Source: Escherichia phage MN05
Sequence record: NC_070987.1
DNA: 64,000 bases
Reading direction: 5' to 3' (one strand)
Shown here: positions 3,000 through 58,655 of the stretch, one piece after another
How the letters are laid out: every line of letters begins with the position of its first letter
How positions within the stretch are numbered: the stretch's first letter is position 1
Notes under the pieces: model-generated
What the model was told of the DNA's origin: nothing
The model's input: the letters and a program-made list of their open reading frames with translations, nothing else
Database searches by the model: none
Position numbers and translations under genes: made by a program

Positions 3000-3968
3000 A
3001 TGGGTGCAGGTGGTTTTCGTAAGAATACTGGTCGTAATAACACCACACTCCCGTACAACGTTGGGTTTCTCAATAATGTACAGGACACAGAAACATATAA
3101 CGTAGCCGTATATGACGAGCTACAGAAAGTCAGTACAGCTACTAACCAAATGTTCCAAGCTATTGATGAGATTCATGATGAGATTGATGTTCGTATCAAA
3201 GCTCTTCATGCGATGAATCTACAATTTGATGAGCTTGAGAACAGAATTACCACAGAGATTGAAACAGCTATCGCAGATATTATAACACAGATGGGGAATC
3301 TCTCCACTGAGGATATTTGGGATAACTCTGTTCAACCTCCGGTAAAACTAGAAAGCACTGTATCTGGCTTTAAAACAAGTATTGAAGGTAACACAACTAA
3401 GATTCAAACGGTAGAAGGGATTGTTAACGACCAAGGTCAAGAGATTGCTTTAGTTCAGACAGAGATTCAAAATATCAATGGAAGCCTCTCTCAGTATATG
3501 AAGCTTTCTGAGTATGAAGCTACGTGGGGTGTTAACTCTACGGTCAACGGAAGATATGCTGGGGTCAAGTTAACTAATAACGGAACAAACAGTCAATTCC
3601 AAGTAACAGCTAACAAGTTTATTGTTGGTGATGGCAGCTCTGGTAATACCCCTTTTGTATTTGAAGGCGGAAGAGCTAGGATGGAATTCGCTGACATAAA
3701 GAACGTCAACATCACAACGGCTCAGATTGCCAACGCTAGGATCCAATGGGCACAGATTGATAACGTATCTATCTCCAATGCTCAGATTCAGAACTTATCA
3801 GCGGATAAAATCACTGCTGGTTCTATGTGGGGTTCTAACTGGAGACTTACTGTTGGTGGTGATTTTGTTATGGGTGGTACAGGTGGTTCTCAGTTGTGGA
3901 TGAATGGTAATAGAATAGATTTTTATGATGGGAGTGGAACTCTTCGCATAAGAATAGGGAGTTGGTAA
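3000..3968 (+). CDS. Tail fibre-associated / tail protein
   Basis: Track ORF 2934..3968 trimmed to ATG 3000, which has SD GGAGGAA upstream; the track N-terminus overlaps the terminator; coiled-coil N-terminus then beta-rich repeats. Confidence 0.5.
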   Translation: MGAGGFRKNTGRNNTTLPYNVGFLNNVQDTETYNVAVYDELQKVSTATNQMFQAIDEIHDEIDVRIKALHAMNLQFDELENRITTEIETAIADIITQMGNLSTEDIWDNSVQPPVKLESTVSGFKTSIEGNTTKIQTVEGIVNDQGQEIALVQTEIQNINGSLSQYMKLSEYEATWGVNSTVNGRYAGVKLTNNGTNSQFQVTANKFIVGDGSSGNTPFVFEGGRARMEFADIKNVNITTAQIANARIQWAQIDNVSISNAQIQNLSADKITAGSMWGSNWRLTVGGDFVMGGTGGSQLWMNGNRIDFYDGSGTLRIRIGSW

Positions 3969-3969
3969 C

Positions 3970-5004
3970 ATGGCATATGGAATATGGACACGCCCGGTTG
4001 GTCCGGGTCCAGCGGCACCTGCTGATATTTATATTGATAGTGGTAGCACATTCCCTCAACTCAGAAATAGAGTCAGTGGGAATTTCTCTTTTAGTGGAAA
4101 TACCTGTGACTTGCCTATAAGTGGTTGGGATGGTAGTGGTCAGATAGTTGTAGTCCCAACAGGGTCTGTTGTTTGGGAGAGATATATACCTCCTAATGTA
4201 ACGTCTGATGTGTATTGGCTAACGGATATATCTGTTATTAATAACTCAACCTTCAGGGTTACTATGGACTATAACGTAAACGGTTGGGTATTTGATATGG
4301 CTTTTAATGTATATCAAATATGGCCTAGAGCTAACAGGAACTATGGAATCACATTCTCCAACTCTGCTGACTATTTCTCAATCTCTGATTCTGGAGTTGT
4401 TGGTCAATGTATTTGGGCTTGGGAGGGTGACATAAACGGTGCTCTTCAAATACCAGATATTGGTGGTTTTGATATGAGCCGAGCAACTGTCTATGCGAAT
4501 TGGAGTAACGGCGGAGCAGGTCTGCTATACAACCCATCCAATAGGGTTGTTTATGTGTACCAGAACAGATCTCATGATAATGGTAACACAAACCAAACAG
4601 GATCAATTGGCGGTGTTAGAATTGCCGTCTTCTGTGATGGTTCTGGAGTACCAACTCATAATGGAGGTTTAAATATCTTCTCTCCAAATGGGTCTCAGTG
4701 TGTATTTTCTACATATAGAACCCCTTTTAGTGTTGAGAGATTTATGCCTATGAGTGGCGGTAACACATCTCTGGCCTATCCAATGATACCATTATCTTAC
4801 GGAGCAGGAGCAATAAGGGGCAAGGCTAGTGGTTGGTATTTTCAACACGCAAGATCTCACATGATGAATGGCTCTTCTTTCGGTACAGGTTTCGGAAGGA
4901 TGATTTACTCTTGGAGTAGTCAATATGATTTAGGAGGGGGTGGTGCCCTCGGGTTAAGTATTCCAATATTAGATGCTAGGAAAATATTCAGGAGTATACA
5001 ATAA
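3970..5004 (+). CDS. Tail fibre / tail protein (Gly/Asn/Ser-rich, beta-rich)
   Basis: Track ORF; starts 2 nt after the previous stop; composition typical of fibre or receptor-binding proteins. Confidence 0.45.
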   Translation: MAYGIWTRPVGPGPAAPADIYIDSGSTFPQLRNRVSGNFSFSGNTCDLPISGWDGSGQIVVVPTGSVVWERYIPPNVTSDVYWLTDISVINNSTFRVTMDYNVNGWVFDMAFNVYQIWPRANRNYGITFSNSADYFSISDSGVVGQCIWAWEGDINGALQIPDIGGFDMSRATVYANWSNGGAGLLYNPSNRVVYVYQNRSHDNGNTNQTGSIGGVRIAVFCDGSGVPTHNGGLNIFSPNGSQCVFSTYRTPFSVERFMPMSGGNTSLAYPMIPLSYGAGAIRGKASGWYFQHARSHMMNGSSFGTGFGRMIYSWSSQYDLGGGGALGLSIPILDARKIFRSIQ

Positions 5005-43899: not shown

Positions 43900-45096
43900 T
43901 TATTTTCCTAAAAATAATCCGCTCATAATACCATCCCACTCAGAGGATGGAATCACTGAATACACTGAACTTTGGTCCAGAGTTCCACTACTAAATCGTT
44001 GAACGATGTTATAGATGTTGAACAGATCTTTAGTCTCAGCACGAATGCCGTAGATTAGACTATTAGCTGTTCTTTCATCTTTAGACACTCGACGGGTAAA
44101 GTTAATCAGAAGGTTGTCACATTTCAGGATTTCTGATTCACTCTCTACTAAGTCGGGGTGCATCACCGGCAAGAACATCGAGTTATTAACTCGTAATTCT
44201 GCTGTTTCATCATTCTCATAATGAATCCACTTAAAATCTTCATCACGGAAATGACCACACCCATCTCTATATGACTGTTGACGCCAAGGCACTTGAAATG
44301 CTTCAGCATACTTATTAGCCATGCCAACTGTAAACAGCGACGCTGGGAAGATACAAGCATCCCAATCATTACCAACCAGAGTTGCTTTCGTTTCCCCTAA
44401 GAGGTTAGTGTAAGTGCTAACCATTCGTGAGTAAACATAAGCCTGAAGGATTGTCCAGCCTTCAACCAACCATTTATGGAGGAAGGTTTCAACTTGACTC
44501 TCTTCATCTTCACAATAGAAGGTTCGGTCTAACATCAAATAGAACAGACAACGATCAGCAGGGATATTCTCAGTTGCTACCCCCATAAAACCTTTATCGT
44601 GCCAGCGTAAACAGGAGGGACGATCTTTGTCCACAAATGCTTCCATAGCTTCCAGTACAGCACGAGGTGTGGTTCGATGCTCAGGGTTTTTGTCGTTCCA
44701 ACGTTCGATGTTGTTCTTAGGGGGCGTGTCTTCATCTTCATACGAACACCAACTTAAAGCTTCAGCTACATGCTTTTCATCACGCCAACGTCTAAAACCT
44801 AACATCTTCATATGAGTTCCAGAGTTCCAGATATGCTTGATTTTACACATATCCATCTCTCGGCTTAACAGGAACTCTTCCCCATCAGCACTACGAACGT
44901 TAGCTTCTTCATGCCACACTCGAACGTGCATATTCCATCCATGAGTTGCCTCATACATGTTAGGGTCGAAGTAGTCATCATCTTCGTCGTCTTCATCAAC
45001 GCCACCATTATAGTTGCGAAGCTGAAGGAACCCATAACAAGGAGGACTAACCGTTAAAACATTACCTTCAGTATCTTCTAATGTTACTGGAAACAT
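43900..45096 (-). CDS. Hypothetical protein (398 aa)
   Basis: Track ORF. Confidence 0.45.
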   Translation of the reverse strand: MFPVTLEDTEGNVLTVSPPCYGFLQLRNYNGGVDEDDEDDDYFDPNMYEATHGWNMHVRVWHEEANVRSADGEEFLLSREMDMCKIKHIWNSGTHMKMLGFRRWRDEKHVAEALSWCSYEDEDTPPKNNIERWNDKNPEHRTTPRAVLEAMEAFVDKDRPSCLRWHDKGFMGVATENIPADRCLFYLMLDRTFYCEDEESQVETFLHKWLVEGWTILQAYVYSRMVSTYTNLLGETKATLVGNDWDACIFPASLFTVGMANKYAEAFQVPWRQQSYRDGCGHFRDEDFKWIHYENDETAELRVNNSMFLPVMHPDLVESESEILKCDNLLINFTRRVSKDERTANSLIYGIRAETKDLFNIYNIVQRFSSGTLDQSSVYSVIPSSEWDGIMSGLFLGK

Positions 45097-45107
45097 TATA
45101 CCAACCT

Positions 45108-45470
45108 CTATTGGTTTTTAATCAACTCAATCGATTTACGGATATAAAGAATATCTCGGAAGTTTCGATAGTTGTTCATAAATTGATGCTTCTGGAACTC
45201 AGCTTCTTCCAGAGCTTTCTTTGCATCTGCGTAGTTTTTACGGGCAAGATGTACAACCCGCTCTGGTAACACATTTGCACGACGGATGATATACTTGTGA
45301 GCTTTCATGTTGCTTTGCTCACGAGAAATCTTACCTTTAGCAACTTTGATACCATTTGCAATCCAAGCAAGTTCTTGCTCAAGATCCTCGTTGGACATTC
45401 CACCGAGATTTGATGCAACCTTGTTCAGAGTTTCAATATTAACGTTGCCCTTGATGGGACGTGTATTCAT
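45108..45470 (-). CDS. Hypothetical protein
   Basis: Track ORF. Confidence 0.45.
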   Translation of the reverse strand: MNTRPIKGNVNIETLNKVASNLGGMSNEDLEQELAWIANGIKVAKGKISREQSNMKAHKYIIRRANVLPERVVHLARKNYADAKKALEEAEFQKHQFMNNYRNFRDILYIRKSIELIKNQ

Positions 45471-45472
45471 AC

Positions 45473-45625
45473 TTACTCCTGTTGTTTACACTCGTCAATA
45501 ACCCACTGATAAGTGGATTGCCCAGAAAAGAAACACTGAATAAATCCAGATGTTCTCTGCGTTACCAGTGCTAGTGCACAAATCACTACCGCTGCTGCTA
45601 GCAGTTTTAAATCTAATTTAGACAT
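45473..45625 (-). CDS. Small membrane / secreted peptide (50 aa, below the track cutoff)
   Basis: SD GAGAGG upstream of the ATG; hydrophobic N-terminus; ends 2 nt before the next start. Confidence 0.35.
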   Translation of the reverse strand: MSKLDLKLLAAAVVICALALVTQRTSGFIQCFFSGQSTYQWVIDECKQQE

Positions 45626-45739
45626 ATTTCCTCTCATTGAATTTAAAAAAGGACTCTCCGAAAAGAGCCAAGCTTTAAATCCAAAAAAAAGATATTACCC
45701 AATATCTGTGGATAACCTGCTCTTAAAATATCTATCCGA

Positions 45740-45853
45740 CGGATGTTTGAGGAACACTCCTCGCCCTAGCATCGGCCCCATACGGGAAATATATTAAGAT
45801 TAGGTTAGTTGAGTCAGAATAACTCACATAGCCCTCCGGAGGGAAGGCTATAG
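45740..45853. repeat. Conserved bipartite intergenic element, copy A
   Basis: Block CGGATGTTTGAGGAAC..CCCTAGC and hairpin block CTCACATAGCCCT...GGCTATAG; second copy at 52125..52228. Confidence 0.45.
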
Positions 45854-45865
45854 GCGTTACTACAA

Positions 45866-46081
45866 CTAAAAATCACTTGATTTTACAAAACCATCACTAA
45901 GAATTTCGTCAATTTCTTTGTTAGTCAAATCTTTCCTGAACCAACAACAAGGTACATCCACCCATTGACCAGAGTTGTTTTCTACAGAGCATCTATTGCC
46001 TGTCTTACTCTTGCACTTATAGGTTTTACCTTTGTCTAGACGATAGTGTATTCTGTGAACGATCGACACAAGCGTTATCAT
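45866..46081 (-). CDS. Hypothetical protein
   Basis: Track ORF. Confidence 0.4.
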   Translation of the reverse strand: MITLVSIVHRIHYRLDKGKTYKCKSKTGNRCSVENNSGQWVDVPCCWFRKDLTNKEIDEILSDGFVKSSDF

Positions 46082-46314
46082 TACTCGCCTTTCTTAGCAC
46101 GATCTTTGGCAGTTTTGCCAGTGCGGATACGATGGGAAACGTTAACCAGAGTGCCACCATCAATTACGGTAACGCTCTTGTTTTTAGCCAGATCAAACAC
46201 AGTCTTCTCTGTGCCACCCAAGCGAATTTGCTTAGGCTCACTGAAGGTTTGGGTTGATTTGGATTGGAACTGGAACGGTTGACGGATTGCATCAATTGCA
46301 CTTACTTTAGACAT
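46081..46314 (-). CDS. Hypothetical protein
   Basis: Track ORF. Confidence 0.45.
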   Translation of the reverse strand: MSKVSAIDAIRQPFQFQSKSTQTFSEPKQIRLGGTEKTVFDLAKNKSVTVIDGGTLVNVSHRIRTGKTAKDRAKKGE

Positions 46315-46420
46315 AGGGGAAATTCCTTAAAAAGTCATGGCTGCGTAGAGGGAATTCCCTACGCAAATTGGGCCGCCCACAGAGAGGCGTCATAGTACTA
46401 AAAGGAGGAGAGAAGAGGGC

Positions 46421-46537
46421 TTATTTAGCTACCTTTTTCTGTCCGTTTACGAACCAGATAATTGAACCATCAGGCTGTCGTTGACCGAAGCCTTTCTGGT
46501 TAATCATATCGTAATAAGAATATGCTTTGATTCTCAT
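46421..46537 (-). CDS. Hypothetical small protein (38 aa)
   Basis: SD AGGAAA; stop lies just upstream of the repeated motif GCGTCATAGTACTAAAA. Confidence 0.3.
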   Translation of the reverse strand: MRIKAYSYYDMINQKGFGQRQPDGSIIWFVNGQKKVAK

Positions 46538-46545
46538 TTGTTTTC

Positions 46546-46788
46546 CTATGGAGTTAAGATAATTTCAGCCTTACTAAACTTCTCACCAACTTCAAGAGTA
46601 TCAGCAACAGGACGGGGCACACCTGTACCCAAACAAACAGCCCTTCGATACCCTCCAGTCACAGGCATCATCAAATAGATGATCTGATTATCATCTTCTT
46701 TTAAAGTGAAGATATCAGCGATCGCTAGATCTTTAACAAAGAGTTTCTTTTCTTCTTCATGATGAACTTTGATATGTATTGTGCTCAT
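46546..46788 (-). CDS. Small protein, family A (G-x-hF / Y-hhh motif)
   Basis: ~80 aa with the shared motif pattern; tandem array. Confidence 0.45.
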   Translation of the reverse strand: MSTIHIKVHHEEEKKLFVKDLAIADIFTLKEDDNQIIYLMMPVTGGYRRAVCLGTGVPRPVADTLEVGEKFSKAEIILTP

Positions 46789-46790
46789 AC

Positions 46791-47036
46791 CTACTCCTGA
46801 ACCACTGACATACGAATCATTTCTACCTGATCATCAAGACCTTTAACAGATAATACACCTGTGGAAAGGTTTACCACAGGAACCCAACCACTGGCTATAC
46901 GGATGTTACCAGAAGCATTTTCAACCCTCATGTAATACTGAGGAGAGGCACTTCCGTTCTGAACCACGAAAGGGTTTCCGGGAATGATTGTTTCCAATCG
47001 TACCGTATTATCCTTTTTCTTTGGGATGATTTTCAT
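46791..47036 (-). CDS. Small protein, family A
   Basis: PGNPFVV...YYMRVEN...NLSTG. Confidence 0.5.
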   Translation of the reverse strand: MKIIPKKKDNTVRLETIIPGNPFVVQNGSASPQYYMRVENASGNIRIASGWVPVVNLSTGVLSVKGLDDQVEMIRMSVVQE

Positions 47037-47275
47037 TAGCCACCACTCACTAAAAGTTCAGCTGATACAGGGACAACTTGGCACGTAGAATCTGGTGCTG
47101 TTACAAGCCCGTCATGTAGACGAAGGGCTAGGGTACGTCCACTATTTACAGACACGTTGGGTGTGCCGTGAACAAAACCTTTAACATAAAGTGTGTCACT
47201 ATCTGGGTGCTTAAACACGGTCCCATTTTCTAAGGATTCAAGTGGGACACGATCAACTCTCTTTGTAATCTTCAT
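47036..47275 (-). CDS. Small protein, family A
   Basis: NGTVFKH...LYVKGF...NVSVNSG. Confidence 0.5.
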   Translation of the reverse strand: MKITKRVDRVPLESLENGTVFKHPDSDTLYVKGFVHGTPNVSVNSGRTLALRLHDGLVTAPDSTCQVVPVSAELLVSGG

Positions 47276-47283
47276 ATTGATTC

Positions 47284-47595
47284 CTATTTAAGTTTTAGAC
47301 TAATATTAAGGTGCATACATGCCCTGTTCTGTACAGCAGCATAACTTCTACCGAGCATGTCAGCCATTCTCTGAATAGACATGAACCCAGCATTACGGAT
47401 AAGGAACTGATCTTCTTCTTCAGACCATTTAACTCGGATTGAAGCTCTTGATATTCCGAATTTAGTGCAAGCTGTGTTAACAGCATTCTCCGTTACATTC
47501 ATAATCTGAGCAACTTCTTGAACCGAGTACTCTTTGATTAGTCTCCGAAGATTTTCAATCTGCATCGGAGTCCATATAGTTCTTCGTGCTTTCAT
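47284..47595 (-). CDS. Myb/SANT-like DNA-binding protein (two repeats)
   Basis: W..MQIENL...VAQIM and WSEEEDQFL...MADMLGRSYAAVQNRA repeats. Confidence 0.45.
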   Translation of the reverse strand: MKARRTIWTPMQIENLRRLIKEYSVQEVAQIMNVTENAVNTACTKFGISRASIRVKWSEEEDQFLIRNAGFMSIQRMADMLGRSYAAVQNRACMHLNISLKLK

Positions 47596-47949
47596 ACATC
47601 CTCCAATTAATTGTTAAAGCTATCAGGGGAGCACACTAGCTCTGGGCCACGCTGTAGATATCGGCCTGCCTTCCACAGCTAATCAGCTAATGTACTCTCC
47701 TAATAGTTTATGAATAGGGGGAGGGGACGAATCCTCCCATATCCTATTAATTAATATTGCATGTAAGATCTAACAATCGGTTGCCTTTGTAGGAATAAGC
47801 GTAAAGCCAATCCAGCACTAAACTCCCGCCCCCTTAGTGGGCTGGGTTATTAAAGGGTAACGCCCTTATGGGCTAGTTACATGAATGTTAGTTTGATAGG
47901 AGATCTGAAGTCCTATCTCAAAGGACTCTCGTAAGAATCCTTCACGATA

Positions 47950-48207
47950 TTACTTAAAGATAAAATGTATAACTGCATCATATGCTTTAGACAGAAGCCA
48001 ACCTATCGGATAACAAACTCCTGCCAATATTGAGATAGGCCACAACACAATTAAGATCACAACCATCATCTCATCAGGTTCAGAGCTGGTGGATCCTGTT
48101 GTAATGACCCCTTTTAGTAGACCTTTCTTGTATAGCAGTTTCAGCACTAAAACAGAAAGGAATACTCCAATAAAGTAAACTGAGATAAAAATATCAAGTA
48201 AACCCAT
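47950..48207 (-). CDS. Small membrane protein, pair F (1 of 2)
   Basis: Two predicted transmembrane segments; shared LWPI motif. Confidence 0.45.
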   Translation of the reverse strand: MGLLDIFISVYFIGVFLSVLVLKLLYKKGLLKGVITTGSTSSEPDEMMVVILIVLWPISILAGVCYPIGWLLSKAYDAVIHFIFK

Positions 48208-48218
48208 TTAATCGTCTC

Positions 48219-48350
48219 TTACTTATTCATCTCTCGTCGGCTGTCTCTCCAAGCCAACCAAGTGTAGGTTTTCAGTTCTTCAAAGTCTTCTGGAGAGAAG
48301 AGATAATCTTTGAAGGTGTTTCCAAACCACTCTAAAAATTCTTTAGTCAT
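48219..48350 (-). CDS. Hypothetical small protein (43 aa)
   Basis: ATGA overlap with the upstream stop. Confidence 0.3.
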   Translation of the reverse strand: MTKEFLEWFGNTFKDYLFSPEDFEELKTYTWLAWRDSRREMNK

Positions 48351-48592
48351 GAGTCCTCATACTTTTTGTTAGGAAGGATGAAATCCCAAAGAGCAGCCCA
48401 TACTGCGAGAGATATAAACAGTACAGCAATGATAGGCCATAGGAAAACCATGGCTGCTATCTTTCCAAGGTCTGCTTCACCTCTCCAGTTTCTAAAGCAT
48501 TCATCACCTTTAACATCTATAACCTTAATAAGTACTCCTGATAATACCATACCTATCAGATATACTATTAACACACTAACAAGACTGATCAC
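48347..48592 (-). CDS. Small membrane protein, pair F (2 of 2)
   Basis: Paralog of 47950..48207. Confidence 0.45.
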   Translation of the reverse strand: MISLVSVLIVYLIGMVLSGVLIKVIDVKGDECFRNWRGEADLGKIAAMVFLWPIIAVLFISLAVWAALWDFILPNKKYEDS

Positions 48593-48791
48593 AAGGTTGA
48601 TCTCCGCATGTTTTACAGATCACTGGTGAGTAACTACAGGCAGGATATACTGACACTCCATCCCACGTCTCACACCCACAGTCAGGACATGTACCATTAG
48701 AAGTCATGTCATCATCGTCACACACATCACCGCCACCAAAACAACTCATATGAACTCCCCTATTAATTGAGAATCCAACTGCCATTCTCAT
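48576..48791 (-). CDS. Cys-rich small protein (start uncertain)
   Basis: Track ORF; CPDCGC...CKTCGD clusters. Confidence 0.35.
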   Translation of the reverse strand: MRMAVGFSINRGVHMSCFGGGDVCDDDDMTSNGTCPDCGCETWDGVSVYPACSYSPVICKTCGDQPCDQSC

Positions 48792-48911
48792 CTATGAATG
48801 AAATCCAATCCCCTACACTCCACTTTGTAGTATCCCCTTTAGGGGATTCTCGGAGAGTGTACATTCCATTTCGAAAAAGCATTCGTTTAAGTTTCACTTA
48901 AGTTAAACTCC

Positions 48912-49133
48912 TTAGTAAACTAAACCTACAACCTTTGCATTAGCTTGAGGGGTGACTTCAGCGGCTGGACGAAATCCGTCAACAACACCGTTGCAGATGT
49001 TGATGCAAGTGATATACCCTCCAACCTCTTGGTCGCCTTTAATCCAAAAACCATCTCTATGTCTAAAAGCACTTCCGCTTAGGAGTGTAGACAGAGGAAC
49101 TACTGGGAGTGTTTGCTTAGCTTCAACCAACAT
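48912..49133 (-). CDS. Small protein, family A
   Basis: SGSAFRHRDGFWIKG...NICNG. Confidence 0.45.
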   Translation of the reverse strand: MLVEAKQTLPVVPLSTLLSGSAFRHRDGFWIKGDQEVGGYITCINICNGVVDGFRPAAEVTPQANAKVVGLVY

Positions 49134-49140
49134 AATAACC

Positions 49141-49395
49141 TCAATTATCGTAGCATGTATTCCAATACATGTAGTTAATGTACGTTCTCGGTTTGATTCC
49201 GTACATGATGAAGTGAGTCTTCTTAATCCTTTCCTTCAGTGTGTAGTAAAGGCCATCGCTGAAGTTACCAATCTTTACTTGGAAGCGTAAAGAGCGAGCA
49301 TCCATTCGAAGCATAGAGATTAGCTGTACCCTACTACCCCCAGCCATCTCTTCCAGAAGCTTCTTTGTATTCCAATAATGAGCTGTCATACTCAC
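49141..49395 (-). CDS. Hypothetical protein
   Basis: Track ORF. Confidence 0.4.
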   Translation of the reverse strand: MSMTAHYWNTKKLLEEMAGGSRVQLISMLRMDARSLRFQVKIGNFSDGLYYTLKERIKKTHFIMYGIKPRTYINYMYWNTCYDN

Positions 49396-49396
49396 C

Positions 49397-49558
49397 TCAG
49401 CGTAGTAAGGTTACGGATGAAAGTTTACCTGTTGCACAGAGAATAACCTCTTTTACAGGGTATTCGTTTCCTGAAAGATCTTCAATATAGACAATAGCTT
49501 CTGGACCACAGTCAACAGATAGATTTTCAAGAGTTCTGATGAGTTCTTCAATAGTCAT
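49397..49558 (-). CDS. Hypothetical small protein (53 aa)
   Basis: ATG 1 nt after the upstream stop; ends 1 nt before the next start. Confidence 0.35.
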   Translation of the reverse strand: MTIEELIRTLENLSVDCGPEAIVYIEDLSGNEYPVKEVILCATGKLSSVTLLR

Positions 49559-49559
49559 A

Positions 49560-49859
49560 TCACCACTCCTTACCGGTTGTTGTTACAGAGCCACCACACC
49601 ACAACGCTGTATCAATCACAACATTGTCTGGAGTAGATTTCTCTTCGTTGATAGAAGGGTTAGCGTTAGAGCAGGTTGCTCCGTTCCAGCGCATATCAAT
49701 TTCACCAGAAGGAATCTTCTCACCTTTATGCCAGCGAGAAACACAAACACCTTCCACTGCTACTGCACACCACCCATCAGGACGGCTCTGTACGCAGCCT
49801 GTAATGGCCACACAGACAAGGAAGATACAGATTAAGGATATTACACCACCCCAACTCAT
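49560..49859 (-). CDS. Predicted lipoprotein
   Basis: Signal peptide with lipobox-like AITGC. Confidence 0.45.
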   Translation of the reverse strand: MSWGGVISLICIFLVCVAITGCVQSRPDGWCAVAVEGVCVSRWHKGEKIPSGEIDMRWNGATCSNANPSINEEKSTPDNVVIDTALWCGGSVTTTGKEW

Positions 49860-49878
49860 AACTATCTCCTACGTTGAT

Positions 49879-49954
49879 TGGTGCACCCTACAGGACTCGA
49901 ACCTGTAACCAACGACTTAGAAGGTCGCTGCTCTGTCCATTGAGCTAAGGGTGC
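49879..49954 (-). tRNA. tRNA-Arg (anticodon TCT), CCA encoded
   Basis: 76-nt cloverleaf folded by hand: 7-bp acceptor stem, D-arm GCTC/GAGC, anticodon loop CTTCTAA, T-arm ACAGG-TTCGAGT-CCTGT, 3' ACCA. Confidence 0.85.
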
Positions 49955-49963
49955 TAGATTTGT

Positions 49964-50173
49964 TTAACTAAAGATACGAATGGCTACATCATGACCGATA
50001 TGACCGGGAACTTTATGCTGTTCTATTTTCAAACAGTGTTTACAGATACGAGATACACGAGATTCTTTTCTCTCGACCGGAGTGTCTTTAGCGTGGGTGA
50101 TATGTAGGTTCTCAGTGATCACCCACTCGTGTTTACATCCAGAATCTTCGGGCTTTTTCTTACGAAAGAACAT
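49964..50173 (-). CDS. Small zinc-finger protein, family C (1 of 3)
   Basis: Track ORF trimmed to ATG 50173 with SD AAGGGG; CKHEW...CKHC. Confidence 0.4.
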   Translation of the reverse strand: MFFRKKKPEDSGCKHEWVITENLHITHAKDTPVERKESRVSRICKHCLKIEQHKVPGHIGHDVAIRIFS

Positions 50174-50181
50174 AACACCCC

Positions 50182-50346
50182 TTAGATCAGATCTGTTTTC
50201 TTGTGCAGACCACACACTTTACAGCGAGAGTAGATACGCAACCCTTGTCGCTCTCTGTCAGTAAGTTTATTTGTGATCGTCAGTTCATAAGTATGAAGAT
50301 CTTCCCACTCATGGAAATGAAAGAAGCGTTTGAACCATTTGATCAT
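50182..50346 (-). CDS. Small zinc-finger protein, family C (2 of 3; 54 aa, below the track cutoff)
   Basis: MIKWFKRFFHFHEW...CKVCG paralogous to 50356..50517. Confidence 0.4.
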   Translation of the reverse strand: MIKWFKRFFHFHEWEDLHTYELTITNKLTDRERQGLRIYSRCKVCGLHKKTDLI

Positions 50347-50355
50347 AATGATTCC

Positions 50356-50517
50356 TTAGATTACATCACGATGACTAACATCACCACACACCTTACACTG
50401 AATAACGTAACGTGTGCCCTTGTCATTATTCCCATCTGAATCTGTATAGACCAGAGGGCGAGTATTAATAATCTTCCAATCATGACAATGAAAGACACGC
50501 TTTAGCCACTTGAACAT
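50356..50517 (-). CDS. Small zinc-finger protein, family C (3 of 3)
   Basis: Track ORF 50356..50691 trimmed to MFKWLKRVFHCHDW...CKVCG with SD GAGG; the track N-terminus overlaps the neighbouring gene. Confidence 0.4.
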   Translation of the reverse strand: MFKWLKRVFHCHDWKIINTRPLVYTDSDGNNDKGTRYVIQCKVCGDVSHRDVI

Positions 50518-50524
50518 ATTAACC

Positions 50525-50776
50525 TCAAGCACAAGCAGGGAGAGTGATGATTTTATACTTGTCATCAAACTCTCCAAATAAACCCAAGAATATAGGACTG
50601 TAAGTACCAGTACAAACAAACTCATCAAACAATGCGTTATAGCTAGGCTTAATCTTCCAAGCCCATACATAACCCATCTTATCAATTGCAATGTAACGAG
50701 TGTTCAGAGGAACAGTCATCATTACACCGTCAACTTCGATCACTTTAGTTATTGGTGCAGCTTGAAAGTTTTTCAT
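50525..50776 (-). CDS. Hypothetical protein
   Basis: Track ORF. Confidence 0.4.
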   Translation of the reverse strand: MKNFQAAPITKVIEVDGVMMTVPLNTRYIAIDKMGYVWAWKIKPSYNALFDEFVCTGTYSPIFLGLFGEFDDKYKIITLPACA

Positions 50777-50997
50777 CCTACTCTCCTAACATTTAGGGTA
50801 GCTTGATAGTATTTGACAGGGCAAGTTCTATCAAATGTAAATCTTGTTTCAGGATTCTTTATACAGATAGCATGTCTGTGCATAACCTTCATGTATAAAG
50901 GAGGTTTTGTATCCCCGTCTATTTCTAGAGAGAATACATCACCATTACGTAGACTACCAAAAGTATTATCTTTAGGTTCAGAGTGGACGATAATCAT
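50773..50997 (-). CDS. Small protein, family A
   Basis: NGDVFSLEIDG...LYMKV. Confidence 0.45.
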   Translation of the reverse strand: MIIVHSEPKDNTFGSLRNGDVFSLEIDGDTKPPLYMKVMHRHAICIKNPETRFTFDRTCPVKYYQATLNVRRVG

Positions 50998-51170
50998 ACT
51001 TTACCTTTGATAAAAATATCATTACCACAAACACAGCATGAACGAACAACAGTAGCGCCACGCTGAACGATACGAACCTCTTCCTTAACCAGATTAATAC
51101 GAGCACCGCAGCAAGGAGAGTTAACATAAGAGTAACCAGCTTGTGTATTCTTGATTGTTTGCTTAGACAT
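50994..51170 (-). CDS. Cys-rich zinc-ribbon protein (58 aa, below the track cutoff)
   Basis: CC...CCVC clusters; stop overlaps the next start (ATGA). Confidence 0.35.
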   Translation of the reverse strand: MSKQTIKNTQAGYSYVNSPCCGARINLVKEEVRIVQRGATVVRSCCVCGNDIFIKGKV

Positions 51171-51519
51171 TTGATTCGAGATCTCTTAGTTGTTCAGCCA
51201 TTTGTTCGCATTCGTTGATGCAGAACACTTCTGTTCTTGGAACCCCGTTAGGGTTGAACCGTGTCTTATCACCTGCATGGGCACAATCAAATCCGATTGT
51301 ATCTAAACCACCCATCTCTTCAAGGGTGTCTTGCCATGTGACACCACCATGAACGTTCACATAACAAACAACCTTTTCCTCTCCGTTATATCCGGTGAAG
51401 TTTTTATGTTTCAAACTATCTGGTAACTCTACATACCCACATAAGTGGGAATTGTTCATGTGCATAATCACAGAACGAAGACCCGATTTAGTTTCCCAAC
51501 TTTTAACTATGCGTCTCAT
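51163..51519 (-). CDS. Hypothetical protein
   Basis: Track ORF. Confidence 0.45.
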   Translation of the reverse strand: MRRIVKSWETKSGLRSVIMHMNNSHLCGYVELPDSLKHKNFTGYNGEEKVVCYVNVHGGVTWQDTLEEMGGLDTIGFDCAHAGDKTRFNPNGVPRTEVFCINECEQMAEQLRDLESNV

Positions 51520-51596
51520 ATAAGCACCTCTTGTTAGTTTAAGTAAGAGTTGTCCCTTAATTAAAACAACAAAGGCCGCCCGAAGGCAGCCTCTCT

Positions 51597-51848
51597 TTAT
51601 TGACTCACACCACGAATCAGATGATTCTGTAGCGTCCCGTCTTCTGCATTATAAAGGAATGCGAACATCAATTCCTTAGCCACATCTCTTGAGCAATTAA
51701 GACACTTAGAGATTTGAGTTAGTTGAGCGTTGCGATCAGTGTGTTCCATCAAGGCAATGCGAATGATCTCTCGCATACCTATTACATGAACTGATTTAAC
51801 CGGCATAGGTCCAATTACCTTGCTTGTTACGAATGGCTGACATTGCAT
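51597..51848 (-). CDS. Hypothetical protein (start uncertain)
   Basis: Track ORF; several internal Met candidates. Confidence 0.35.
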   Translation of the reverse strand: MQCQPFVTSKVIGPMPVKSVHVIGMREIIRIALMEHTDRNAQLTQISKCLNCSRDVAKELMFAFLYNAEDGTLQNHLIRGVSQ

Positions 51849-52124
51849 GAACCCAGAAGCCTTCCAGTTTCAGAGCACCGTTAGCTACTGCATCCATACG
51901 TTCAGGGCGGTTCATACGTTTGGTTGATACTTTCATACCTATCTCTCTTTGTTGGTGGAGGCATTATTGCCAGTTGATATAGCGGATGACTCTTACAATA
52001 GAGCCACCTACTCTACAAACTGGTGAAGACTCCCTACCCCTAGGAAGTCTCCTGAATCCCAAACCAATACGTACCCCTACATATCGGAAAGTCTTTCGAA
52101 AATTAACAGGTTTTAGTCTAACAC

Positions 52125-52228
52125 CGGATGTTCGAGCAAGCTCTCCCTAGCGGTGTGGCATATGCCTGGTTAATAAGTTAATGAGGAACATCCTCACATA
52201 GCCCTCTGATAAACACAAGGGCTATAAG
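52125..52228. repeat. Conserved bipartite intergenic element, copy B
   Basis: CGGATGTTCGAGCAAGCTCTCCCTAGC and CTCACATAGCCCT...AGGGCTATAAG; matches copy A. Confidence 0.45.
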
Positions 52229-52234
52229 TCGATG

Positions 52235-52453
52235 TTACTTTTGAGTCAAACACAAATCAGGACGAGGCATAACAGTGGTTGACAGATTGAACACACCAAT
52301 ATATCCAGTTACCAAATTAGCTGCCTGACGCAAGCCATCAGGAGTCTTATCCTCTAGCATCAGCCAGAAGCATTTATCATAAGAGAAAACATCACCACCC
52401 TTAACGTCTTCTGCATTTGCATATTTAGGATAATCAACTACTTTAATTTCCAT
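52235..52453 (-). CDS. Small protein, family A
   Basis: GGDVFSYDKCFWLM...NLVTG. Confidence 0.5.
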   Translation of the reverse strand: MEIKVVDYPKYANAEDVKGGDVFSYDKCFWLMLEDKTPDGLRQAANLVTGYIGVFNLSTTVMPRPDLCLTQK

Positions 52454-52711
52454 TTACTTGCCTTTATTAGTAATTACTACATCAGGGACGAGGATAACTT
52501 TACTTTTTGATCTGAGCTTAATGACTTTTTTATTTGTCAGACTCAGGACAACACACCCACCATCAGAGGGTTTAACTTCCTTGATTTGTGGTGAAAACAA
52601 CTGAACAACCATGTAGAAATCTGCGCGGGTATCCCTGATTTGGAATACATCCCCGAGAACAAGATCACCCACTGTAAGATCTGGGTCTTTCATCTCAAGA
52701 TCAATCTTCAT
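52454..52711 (-). CDS. Small protein, family A
   Basis: LGDVFQIRD...FYMVV. Confidence 0.5.
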   Translation of the reverse strand: MKIDLEMKDPDLTVGDLVLGDVFQIRDTRADFYMVVQLFSPQIKEVKPSDGGCVVLSLTNKKVIKLRSKSKVILVPDVVITNKGK

Positions 52712-52958
52712 CTTTATCCTCTATGTTAGTTATGTGGAGATCATTGCGCACTTGGCAGACTTCGTTTTTGCTGATAACAATAAGCTCTCCAGAAACCACG
52801 TTAACGCAATTGACGTGATAATCAGTTGTTAATCCGGTTCTGATATAGAGGGAACCTTTAAAATGAAACAGGGCACCCGGCCTCATGTTATTTAAACGGA
52901 GTGTAGTATGATCAGGCTTAATATTAACTTTCACTGTTAATCTCCTGCTGCTTAGCAA
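52701..52958 (-). CDS. Small protein, family A
   Basis: PGALFHFKGSLYIRTG...NVVSG. Confidence 0.45.
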   Translation of the reverse strand: MLSSRRLTVKVNIKPDHTTLRLNNMRPGALFHFKGSLYIRTGLTTDYHVNCVNVVSGELIVISKNEVCQVRNDLHITNIEDKDED

Positions 52959-53220
52959 TAGCTACTCGCAAGTCTTCATTAGCACGAGCAAGACGTAATA
53001 CTTCATGGTTGAGACTCTGAAGACGCTTGTTTCTGTCTTCAACTTGCATAATAAGATCATTAAGAGTTGCTTTAACTTTCTCATTATACATCTCATCCAC
53101 TCGGACTAGAGATTTATACATTCTTTCCCAGCTTGCTGCTTTGTTTCTGAGAACAATAAATCCTATAACGCTGATAGTTAAACAGCTTACAAAAAGGAAT
53201 TTATATACTTCTAAAGTCAT
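52924..53220 (-). CDS. Membrane-anchored coiled-coil protein
   Basis: N-terminal transmembrane segment followed by coiled coil; downstream of the hydrolase gene. Confidence 0.4.
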   Translation of the reverse strand: MTLEVYKFLFVSCLTISVIGFIVLRNKAASWERMYKSLVRVDEMYNEKVKATLNDLIMQVEDRNKRLQSLNHEVLRLARANEDLRVAIAKQQEINSES

Positions 53221-53857: not shown

Positions 53858-53885
53858 ATAAAAAAGCCCCAGCCGTAGCCGGGGC
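53858..53885 (-). terminator. Rho-independent terminator (minus strand), first of a tandem pair
   Basis: GCCCCGGC-TACG-GCTGGGGC hairpin (one mismatch) followed by TTTTTT on the minus strand. Confidence 0.55.
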
Positions 53886-53948
53886 AAACCTGAAAGCAAC
53901 GCATGACCGTTGCTATAAATACACTCGCAAATGCACTTACAGCAACGC

Positions 53949-53969
53949 AAAAAGCCGCTCAAAGGCGGC
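53949..53969 (-). terminator. Rho-independent terminator (minus strand), second of a tandem pair
   Basis: GCCGCC-TTTGA-GCGGC hairpin followed by TTTTT on the minus strand. Confidence 0.5.
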
Positions 53970-54027
53970 TATGTGGAAGCTTCAAATGGGGGAGAGGGCA
54001 CGACGCTACAGAAAGAGCGTCATAGTA

Positions 54028-55410: not shown

Positions 55411-55455
55411 AAAAGAAAAGGCGCTACCCATTAAGATAGCGCCTTATGTTTATTT
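55411..55455. terminator. Bidirectional rho-independent terminator
   Basis: GGCGCTA...TAGCGCC 7-bp stem flanked by A-run and T-run; lies just after the stop of 55468..56367. Confidence 0.5.
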
Positions 55456-57189: not shown

Positions 57190-58234
57190 TTAAAGAGCGG
57201 TAAATCTATCAAACGTGCTTTCTCACGTTATGCAACTGTTAGCCGTTGTTACGCTTTTCACTGAAGCGGTGTTTTGCTTGAGTGTGCTCATTATGGACCA
57301 TGATGTTTTCGCCGTCAACCGCTTTTTTAATCTTTTTCGTCGTTCCCACTATTGGGAGGATATATCAACCAGCTTTGTTTGATTGAAGATCAAGCGATAA
57401 GGCTTAACTCATGATTCACATTGTTAAAGAGCGTTTAGCCTTTTATAGTGTCTGCTAATCACTGCATCATTAAAGGCTTACTTATTCATTAACGGGGCGC
57501 CTAATCCCGAACTGCCCGCTGCACTATGTGCCACCTTTCCCGCGATACGTTGATTTGGGAACTAGTTAACGTTGTTTTGTTAACTTGTGGTTAGTATGAA
57601 CTACCTTAACCACGTTTGCAACCTCTTTTTTATCATCTTCTTTTATTCTTTTCCCTTATCTCGCGTGACTCTATGCGAAAGGGCAAGATGATAAGTCTGA
57701 TTTGTCTTTTAGGAATCTAGTACGCTTTCAAGCATTAATCTTTTGAAAGTATCGAACAAATAAGGCTTATTGATATTGCTTATTGTCCGCCTGCGTCACG
57801 TATGAATCAGGAATCAATTCTACCGATTAACTGGGCGCCTTATAGTAATGACGTCGCCGCCACCCGTAAGACAAATCATATTTTTAAAGAGCGTGCGGCT
57901 CACATAACACCGCTTGATAGTCAGTTAACCTATGACTATTCAGGGGCATGGTATCCGTCTGCCTACGTCTGACTTGCTTCACTCACTAGGGAGTTACTTG
58001 AGCGGTCATCTTGTCTTTCTAAGCTCATTATAGGTTAGGCTTTCCAGTTGTCAAATACTTTTTCAAGTATTTTTTCACTTTCCAGCCTGATTTTTAAAGA
58101 GCGGGGCAAGTTTCCTTGCCTTGTATGTTTTACATCGTACCCGATGAAAACCAGTATACGCCATCTTTCACGGAGCGCAATAGGGCAAAGCAAAATATTT
58201 TAAACTTTTTCACTATAGGGAAGATAAAAGAGCG
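57190..58234. repeat. Dispersed direct repeats of TTAAAGAGCG (four exact copies and one degenerate) in an ORF-free region
   Basis: Copies at 57190, 57424, 57884 and 58094, plus AAAAGAGCG at 58226; each preceded by AT-rich ATT(G/T)T. Confidence 0.5.
57290..57318 (-). promoter_or_regulatory. Sigma70-like promoter candidate (minus strand)
   Basis: TTGACG-N17-CATAAT with an upstream A-tract; no ORF of 60 aa or more for about 900 nt downstream. Confidence 0.35.
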
Positions 58235-58655
58235 GGCGAACGTGTTACACCGTAGGAAAAGGCTCGTAAGGCAACAATAGGCGGCCTAAAACGCACCGTA
58301 GCGAGCTAAAAGGGAGTAGGGAATACAATCACCTTAGAAAAGAAAAAAGCCTCATGGCGAGGCTTTCAGGGAGGTTTTAAAGCATTAAGTAAATTATGGC
58401 CATAGGCATGACTACGGCACAATAAAGGAGAAAGATCAGTCCTATGGATTTAAACATTACCCACAGCCGATAGCAGAACACCTAACAGAAGAATGACCAG
58501 AAAGAAGCCTACAACCGTTTTAACGACGAATCTAATAAACCACATAGCAATAAACCTTCTTAATTAAAGGATGTAAGAATAAAGCATATCAGCGACGAAT
58601 AGCGCCACTGTAACAACGAACAAGCAACGCCAAAGATAATCACAAATCATTTTTA

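Follow-up and report, generated by a model that had tools for sequence, protein, structure and literature searches.

In phage HK022, two similar cis-acting RNAs of ~70 nucleotides (nt) act on the host RNA polymerase without a phage protein (PMC9378689). Salmonella phage 7-11 makes long polycistronic early transcripts; according to the authors who described them, antitermination is bound to take place there, by a strategy that 'remains to be defined' (Lavysh et al., PMC8948821). In the kuravirus SU10, the right end is the only place for which early sigma-70 promoters have been described, and downstream of them lies a single cluster of early genes. Here we describe two copies, A and B, of an intergenic element in a stretch of 64,000 nt from Escherichia phage MN05 (NC_070987.1; the whole stretch is called the window), which is a phiEco32-like Kuravirus. 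The element is, with high confidence, a selected, structured RNA. We compared its two copies with each other, with their counterparts in other phages and with the RNA signals of known phage systems.

Both blocks of the element, which a preliminary description had presented as a conserved bipartite intergenic feature, were found where it placed them: CGGATGTT(T/C)GAG at 45740 and 52125, followed by CCCTAGC, and CTCACATAGCCCT at 45823 and 52193. Both copies also lie between minus-strand genes, as had been claimed, in gaps at 45638-45865 (copy A, between the homologues of phi32_91 and phi32_90) and 51937-52234 (copy B, between the homologues of phi32_113 and phi32_112). The two gaps are unusually long and are flanked by small minus-strand open reading frames (ORFs). 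Since the genes are on the minus strand, the elements are read on that strand, where the hairpin UAUAGCC..GGCUAUGUGAG comes first and GCUAGGG-N-GAG..CUC-R-AACAUCCG follows 45-56 nt on. The word bipartite understates the element, however: the two blocks are real, but they belong to a larger fold with several helices, 217 nt long in copy A and ~300 nt in copy B, and the element exceeds the earlier coordinates on both sides (45645-45861 and ~51934-52239, respectively). The former hairpin block is helix P1 (UAUAGCC-loop-GGCUAUG), and the former CGGATGTTYGAG...CCCTAGC block is helix P4 (CGGATGTTTGAG...CCCTAGC in copy A). The 8 kilobases (kb) around both copies (45000-53000) are ~91% identical to Escherichia phage phiEco32 and ~100 other kuraviruses, over an aligned fraction of just 68-82%.

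Taken alone, a 13- or 14-mer shared by the copies would be unremarkable in 64 kb (for the 13-mer, four matches with up to two mismatches, against 1.2 expected), and the 12-mer gave 10 matches against 6.7 expected at the same tolerance. It is the joint, ordered and structured similarity of the two copies that is far beyond chance. A covariance model trained on A-type copies from other phages, from which B copies and the metagenomic contig L131 (described below) were excluded, found copy B of the window at 37.1 bits (E=5.7e-8), with no other match at E<=1 in the window, and found L131 at E=8e-14. A combined A+B model gave exactly two matches in the window, copy A at 80.4 bits and copy B at 65.6 bits, the next best reaching 8.9 bits, and thus no additional copy. 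In a control search of 751 kb of mostly unrelated viral contigs, E<0.01 was reached by kuravirus loci only. The leave-out model and the control searches together rule out a chance repeat. Copies A and B are paralogous instances of one structured RNA module.

The core shared by the copies consists of hairpin P3 and helix P4. In P4, a stem of 6 base pairs (bp; P4a) and an apical stem of 4-5 bp (P4b) flank an invariant symmetric 7x7 internal loop, CUAGGGN / RAACAUC. Copies A and B agree at all 14 loop nucleotides except N and R, and in P4a five of the six base pairs differ between the copies while all six are still paired. By lineage, P4a reads CCGAUG/CGUCGG (A), ACACCG/CGGUGU (B), UCGGUG/CGCCGA (7-11) and AUAGCG/CGCUAU (L131), and P3, with its RUAU tetraloop, reads CCC-GUAU-GGG (A), GGC-AUAU-GCC (B) and CCC-AUAU-GGG (L131). 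We tested covariation of the core on a 20-sequence alignment, in which the 3′ partners were slid by 1-3 columns and 500 shuffles were made. In the true alignment 95.9% of cells were paired, compared with 33-45% when the 3′ partners were slid; seven of the 14 core pairs showed changes on both sides, and the covariation score of the core was reached by none of the 500 shuffles. P4a contributed both-side changes in four of its six pairs, with 98% of cells paired. The N and R loop positions covary as well (A..G in 11 distinct sequences, C..A in nine, A..A in two and C..G in none), and their switches are independent within each clade. In isostericity tables, A..G and C..A are compatible with a trans Hoogsteen/sugar-edge pair, and the N/R pattern fits a non-Watson-Crick pair of this kind stacked on tandem G-A pairs. 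A reading of CCUAA/UAUGG as a GNRA receptor was dropped, being contradicted by the covariation of P3. Many of the pairs are G-U, and the antisense strand folds less stably than the sense strand, by 9 kcal/mol, indicating that the structure belongs to the transcript and not to the opposite strand. The strong conservation in relatives and the compensatory base changes thus agree with the preliminary description, which took the element for a conserved intergenic stem-loop, probably acting at the RNA level.

Copy A is composed of the following parts:
45645..45861, minus strand: whole RNA of copy A, 217 nt, made up of an AGUAAC leader, P1, P1′, a three-way junction P2/P3/P4, a tail and an intrinsic terminator
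45827..45852, minus strand: helix P1, UAUAGCC(UU)-loop-(AG)GGCUAUG, the former hairpin block
45810..45826, minus strand: hairpin P1′, UGAGUUA-UUC-UGACUCA, seen in the minimum free energy (MFE) fold of the single sequence
45794..45808, minus strand: 5′ strand of P2, CUAACCU..UCUUAA, a long-range helix with its partner at 45713-45726
45777..45786, minus strand: hairpin P3, CCC-GUAU-GGG, with C-G replaced by G-C in the 7-11 clade
45736..45775, minus strand: helix P4, with P4a CCGAUG/CGUCGG, loop CUAGGGC / AAACAUC and P4b GAGGA-GUGU-UCCUC
45713..45726, minus strand: 3′ strand of P2, UUAAGAGCAGGUUA (UUAAGA..AGGUUA), followed by an invariant UCCACAG
45645..45706, minus strand: 3′ tail, with a weak AU hairpin plus U8 (45683-45706) and the intrinsic terminator (45645-45669)

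Copy A has an MFE of -69.5 kcal/mol (z=-3.4) and is 93-99% identical in ~100 kuravirus records. RNAalifold on an alignment of 16 distinct A-type sequences found compensatory change in eight pairs. The stem sequence of P1 is invariant and its loop differs in length and sequence; pair 18:31 changes from U-A to A-U in three sequences. P1′ reads GAGCUA/UGGCUC in Suseptimavirus, a U-A to C-G compensation, and GAGUUA/UAACUC in the 7-11 type. This hairpin competes with the lower stem of P1 in the alifold structure (AGUAAC/GUUAUU). The Suseptimavirus change breaks that lower stem, leaving pair 5:44 as A-C in two sequences, so the covariation favours P1′ over the lower stem. P2 is compensated in the 7-11 clade at pair 80:155 (A-U to U-A) and also at pair 77:158. 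The terminator, GGCUCU-UUUCGG-AGAGUCC-U6, was recovered by a terminator scan as a GC-containing hairpin with a U tract (45669-45652 plus U6); it is present in 16 of the 16 A-type sequences with an invariant stem and a varying loop, the same terminator is annotated in phage 7-11, and the ribosome-binding site of the next gene lies 12 nt beyond it.

A perfect DnaA box, TTATCCACA, lies at 45707-45715 (minus strand), where it partly overlaps the 3′ strand of P2 and has the invariant unpaired CCACAG next to it. The T4 promoter-early stem-loops (PeSL) are units of a promoter plus a stem-loop that act in DNA shuffling. A role at the DNA level (an operator, a PeSL-like recombination cassette, or an origin of replication or DnaA site) could draw on this box, which is invariant in all A-type copies (including those of 7-11, L140 and L154), and on P1, which as DNA is the inverted repeat TATAGCC..GGCTATA. 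However, the compensatory changes keep G-U pairs, which on the other strand would be A-C mismatches; the fold is more stable on the sense strand by the margin given above; the P1 spacer ranges from 10 to 16 nt, which is ill-suited to a dimeric operator; and there are no conserved promoter hexamers. Two perfect DnaA boxes are present in the window where 0.5 would be expected, a number that does not stand out statistically; copy A has one of them and copy B none, and GC skew shows no inflection at the element. A DnaA-dependent origin was judged unlikely, given a single box that lies partly inside P2, is absent from B and coincides with no skew inflection, and we regard action at the DNA level as a whole as very improbable.

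Copy B shares P1, P1′ and the core with copy A and adds a 3′ domain of its own:
51934..52239, minus strand: whole RNA of copy B, ~300 nt to the ATG of the phi32_112 homologue, made up of a leader, P1, P1′, the P3/P4 core and H5-H8
52197..52226, minus strand: helix P1, UAUAGCCCU-12 nt-AGGGCUAUG, again the former hairpin block
52183..52195, minus strand: hairpin P1′, GAGGA-UGU-UCCUC
52121..52166, minus strand: core, with P3 GGC-AUAU-GCC, P4a ACACCG/CGGUGU, loop CUAGGGA / GAACAUC and P4b GAGC-UU-GCUC
51960..52086, minus strand: 3′ domain specific to B, with H5 (52065-52086), H6 (52025-52052), H7 (51971-52022) and H8 (51960-51971)
51571..51594, minus strand: next terminator-like site 3′ of copy B, ~520 nt after the core and outside the fold

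The fold of copy B was derived from an alignment of 11 distinct B sequences with alifold and a pair table (z=-3.3), and the copy is conserved in 97 phage records. Suseptimavirus B carries UCACCG/CGGUGA in P4a and GCC-AUAU-GGC in P3, each compensatory. For the 5′ half of P1′ there is an alternative partner, the leader AACAUC (52229-52234), and pair 8:49 between the leader and GRUGU is C-G seven times, U-A three times and U-G once. GGRUGUU in P1′ is complementary both to the leader AACAYC and to AACAUCC of the invariant core loop, which hints at mutually exclusive pairings of P1′ with the leader or the core loop. After its core, copy B runs on for ~200 nt of further conserved hairpins, which covary extensively, for example in pairs 196-202 with 213-219 and 235-245 with 313-323, and the loops of H5 and H6 are identical (UA-GGGG-UA). 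H7 carries an insertion of 59-60 nt in most kuraviruses, including phiEco32 (L001 7959-8316); the corresponding site in the window is at ~51990-52000, and the insertion is absent from this window and from NJ01. UAGGG recurs four times in copy B, and AUAUGUAGGUGUA, which follows soon after the core in L131 (~3170-3185, estimated), matches B's AUAUGUAGGGGUA at 12 of 13 positions. The repeated UAGGG may be a protein-binding or Shine-Dalgarno-like motif.

These features bear on whether the element works in trans, as a stable noncoding RNA of which copy A, ~215 nt long, would be freed from the 3′ end of the upstream mRNA, and whose invariant loop would bind a host or phage protein and so sequester or redirect it, as a decoy, sponge or small RNA. 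The 3′ end of copy A is canonical for such an RNA, with an AU-rich segment, a terminator hairpin and U6; copy A has conserved unpaired stretches, UCCACAG and AUUGG; the whole 200-300 nt are conserved, which is more than a short signal; and the UAGGG-type motifs, four in copy B and one in L131, are reminiscent of protein-sponge RNAs. However, no conserved promoter lies upstream, since not even kuraviruses agree in the sequence that precedes P1; a terminator that would set a 3′ end is missing from B and L131; and the Rfam scans gave no match to a small RNA family, nor is there a similar sequence in E. coli genomes. We therefore hold a trans-acting RNA to be possible but doubtful. The small RNA suggested in the preliminary description is still a candidate for copy A, which has a terminator at its 3′ end.

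We further studied the distribution of the module by exact-pattern scans of IMG/VR, GTDB genomes and JGI/ENA metagenomes. The search for further copies that the preliminary description had called for showed that relatives carry the element, as do phage groups beyond the kuraviruses, and that the window holds no third copy. Kuravirus and Suseptimavirus genomes have both A and B. Copy A is ~72% identical over ~160 nt in Salmonella phages 7-11, SE131 and SeKF_80 (Moazamivirus, family Grimontviridae), and in 7-11 the alignment spans the whole gap. These 7-11-like phages carry A only; the covariance model found one copy and no second in 45-90 kb of 7-11. Near copy A, the next-but-one upstream protein is 34% identical between 7-11 and phiEco32, and the adjacent upstream proteins show no similarity, so that the RNA is far better conserved than the surrounding proteins. 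The element also occurs on a divergent 1.1-kb metagenome fragment (L154). In contig L131, 48.7 kb long and binned into a 'Flavobacterium' metagenome-assembled genome, the core lies on the same strand as the genes, within a gap of 460 nt between small ORFs; P4a is fully compensated and the loop intact. Outside the motif, L131 resembles the window neither in nucleotide sequence nor in any protein detectable by BLASTP, and a 446-aa protein points to relatedness to Citrobacter phage CVT22 and allies. Six GC-rich metagenome and viral contigs (L125, L129, L143, L148, L155 and L138) match a 22-nt pattern (GCTAGGGGGAGACC...CTCAAACATCCG) but have no P4 pairing and were treated as unrelated; in L125 and L129 the pattern, inspected by eye, coincides in part with a Shine-Dalgarno sequence and the beginning of a holin-like ORF. 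A loose hairpin pattern run over IMG/VR gave chance matches for all but a couple of the listed loci, such as L036 and L080, and was discarded.

The module is a new structured RNA family; it belongs to a familiar kind of phage intercistronic regulatory RNA and matches no described family. Rfam 15 at gathering thresholds identified only a tRNA-Arg in the window, and Rfam E-value scans of copy A, copy B and L131 stayed at chance level (<=18.5 bits, E>=0.24). A tRNA, a tmRNA and other known RNA families were rejected as identities of the element, since ARAGORN and Rfam gave only that tRNA-Arg; its gene, tRNA-Arg(UCU) at 49879-49954 (minus strand), lies between the copies in the same early operon. 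A put homologue was rejected because the covariance model gave no match above 8.9 bits (E=1.3) in HK022 22-40.7 kb. Nor does the element obviously mimic a host sequence or rRNA: no blastn match was found in 5,426 E. coli genomes, and the rrnB operon had neither a covariance-model match nor a CUAGGG/GAACAUCC loop. The alignments contained no lambda-type nut site, with no conserved boxA-like sequence and no pentaloop hairpin. The flanking ORFs had no Pfam match, and their PHROG matches were only to families without an assigned function.

The layout of copy A also recalls a riboswitch-like sensor, in which a small molecule would be bound at the junction and internal loop, with control over the downstream terminator in copy A. 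Copy A follows the order of aptamer, terminator and ribosome-binding site, and the invariant unpaired nucleotides are framed by covarying helices. Moreover, in the three lineages the next few genes downstream of the module lead to an amidoligase/glutamine-amidotransferase/ATP-grasp cluster, or to a gene that precedes this cluster in CVT22. Against a sensor, the immediate downstream genes are unrelated among A, B, 7-11 and L131 and lack an assigned function, copies B and L131 have no recognisable expression platform, no antiterminator pairing is conserved and no Rfam riboswitch matched. Such a sensor is improbable in our estimate.

Being on the minus strand, the module is part of the long early polycistronic transcript made by the host RNA polymerase. 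A consensus sigma-70 promoter (TTGACA-16-TATAAT) lies at ~58.0 kb, ~5.5 kb upstream of copy B and ~12 kb upstream of copy A; this promoter (58027-58054, minus strand) stands ~290 nt downstream of a strong terminator (58345-58367, minus strand). Together with the SU10 promoter list, it marks the main early promoter cluster.

A promoter for a phage sigma factor had been among the roles first suggested for the element. Its intergenic position and one weak sigma-70-like match in copy A would suit a promoter, whether read with gp36, the phage sigma factor, or with host sigma-70. The gp36 consensus is a single element, tAATGTAtA, 6-8 bp upstream of the start (PMC8948821, PMC4331800), and the known gp36 promoters precede genes 6, 13, 26, 40, 58 and 68, not genes 90 or 112. 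Perfect consensus matches (TAATGTATA) occur in the window only at 4305, 9557, 18926 (minus strand), 18987 and 25559 (minus strand), which presumably are the middle and late promoters of the phage, and neither element contains a match with up to one mismatch. The sigma-70-like match, at 9 of 12 positions the only one in copy A, is at chance frequency, lies inside P2 and is not conserved in 7-11. The published promoter maps place no promoter here, and the SU10 table of promoters and terminators lists nothing at this position. The phage-sigma promoter of the preliminary description is thus rejected, and promoters of either kind are highly improbable.

The same intercistronic position, within a long early transcript, would suit a processing or stability element, at which the early RNA would be cleaved by RNase E, or by RNase III at P1, and the hairpins would guard the ends. 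P1 and its lower stem can make ~15-17 bp in A and B, but these are interrupted by an internal loop, and in copy A the lower stem competes with the P1′ hairpin that covariation supports. The remaining helices are short for RNase III (P4a 6 bp, P4b 4-5 bp and P1 alone 9-11 bp). Furthermore, constraint is strongest in an internal loop that is kept base for base from one phage family to another, which RNase III would not demand, and there are two sites only in ~26 kb of early operon. The RNase III site proposed in the preliminary description is therefore unsupported, with P1 alone left as a candidate, and we consider processing of either kind unlikely.

Because the SU10 early promoters are known only from the right end, transcription from them would have to pass the terminators of the early cluster. 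Every A-type copy is followed by the same terminator within 25-60 nt, and ~twenty further early genes lie beyond it. Given the early-operon position, the invariant core without a shared protein, the A-type terminator and the gap in the description of 7-11, the closest working analogy is HK022 put. In such a scheme, the nascent RNA would act in cis on the elongating host RNA polymerase or on Nus-type factors, the invariant internal loop would be the docking site for a host component, and the RNA would set how much transcription passes the terminators of the early operon, as in put- or nut-like antitermination or attenuation. A host partner would be likelier than a phage partner, because the RNA is common to three phage lineages in which no shared neighbouring protein was detected. 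Tentatively, then, we suggest that the module may be a cis-acting RNA that governs antitermination or attenuation by the host RNA polymerase in the early operon.

Several observations weigh against a role in antitermination or attenuation. No terminator adjoins copy B or the copy in L131. On its way from the early promoters to copy B, transcription would meet terminator-like sites at 55445, 53970 and 53885, and the element therefore cannot explain read-through of all terminators. The distances of ~5.5 and ~12 kb from the promoters are unlike those of the put sites, which are near theirs, and the module has no sequence or structure homology to put. No alternative pairing between module and terminator is conserved. 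Moreover, the motif was not found in 30-47.6 kb of CVT22, the relative of L131, or in 35-76.6 kb of GAP52, a relative of 7-11; its distribution is therefore patchy, and it is not essential to this transcription strategy.

An antiterminator formed by the 3′ strand of P2 (AAGAGC) and the 5′ arm of the terminator (GCUCUU) was considered as well; it is present in kuraviruses but lost in L140 and L154, and was dropped. Two tandem terminator-like hairpins ~100 nt apart, AGCCGC..GCGGCU with U5 and GCCCCGGC..GCUGGGGC with U6, were found at 53866-53970 (minus strand) in a gap of 217 nt, and they could bracket a small RNA or form a double stop in the early operon. In 7-11, gp136 (L156 38012-38227), beside the phi32_112 homologue, is annotated as 'anti-termination protein Q-like', and an unannotated gap of 711 nt lies downstream of gp135 (L156 37135-37845).

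Put more broadly, the module could represent a new class of RNA whose invariant loop is its point of attachment to some host machine. It would then be either a put-like, protein-independent antiterminator of E. coli or Salmonella RNA polymerase or a riboswitch or ribozyme of a new class, found in podophage lineages that use the host RNA polymerase and, where characterised, their own sigma factor; we advance this with much reserve. Phages phiEco32 and 7-11 are models of the reprogramming of host RNA polymerase, with early operons of ~25-40 kb that are read across several terminators. The RNA is a concrete and easily mutated candidate for the missing control element, being structured, previously unannotated, duplicated in kuraviruses and recurring in an uncultured phage that looks unrelated. 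A put-like mode of action, if true, would supply the 'undefined antitermination strategy' of phage 7-11. Regardless of its role the RNA is a new family, and invariant internal loops such as this one have previously turned out to be binding sites for a ligand, a protein or a polymerase. In kuravirus records the element also accounts for two long stretches that are at present left without annotation or annotated as hypothetical proteins.

Compared with known systems, the module most resembles putL and putR of HK022, two similar folded cis-acting RNAs in early transcripts of the host RNA polymerase. The put RNAs consist of stems with bulges and internal loops of sequence importance and need no dedicated phage protein (PMC9378689), and here, too, no phage protein is common to L131 and the window lineages that carry the RNA. 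Each of the two copies here has a terminator downstream, and further terminator-like sites lie upstream of the copies. Unlike put, which spans ~70 nt and two adjacent stem-loops, the module has a three-way junction and P1, and its copies lie 5.5 and 12 kb from the promoters instead of just downstream of them; antitermination is here a prediction only.

The lambda nut sites (boxA plus boxB, with the N protein) are likewise early-operon RNA signals that stand before terminators, as nutR does before tR1, with two per genome, and both signals include a small conserved hairpin. In contrast to nut, the module has no conserved boxA, GCUCUUU occurring only in the kuravirus terminator arm and as GCUCUGG in 7-11; nor does it have a boxB-type pentaloop, and no N-like protein was identified. 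The early RNase III sites of T7 share the repeated arrangement of stem, internal loop and stem between genes of an early transcript made by the host polymerase, but they offer about two turns of duplex, often with a central internal loop, whereas the helices here are much shorter, the loop sequence is constrained and there are only two sites. Like terminating riboswitches and attenuators, copy A places a multi-helix domain with invariant unpaired bases before a terminator and the next ribosome-binding site; unlike them, the module has no consistent class of downstream genes and no conserved switching helix, and two of its three variants have no terminator. Finally, the T4 PeSL are also repeated intergenic stem-loop elements among small early genes, but the elements described here carry no promoter, and their base pairing is kept by compensation, as for a functional RNA fold.

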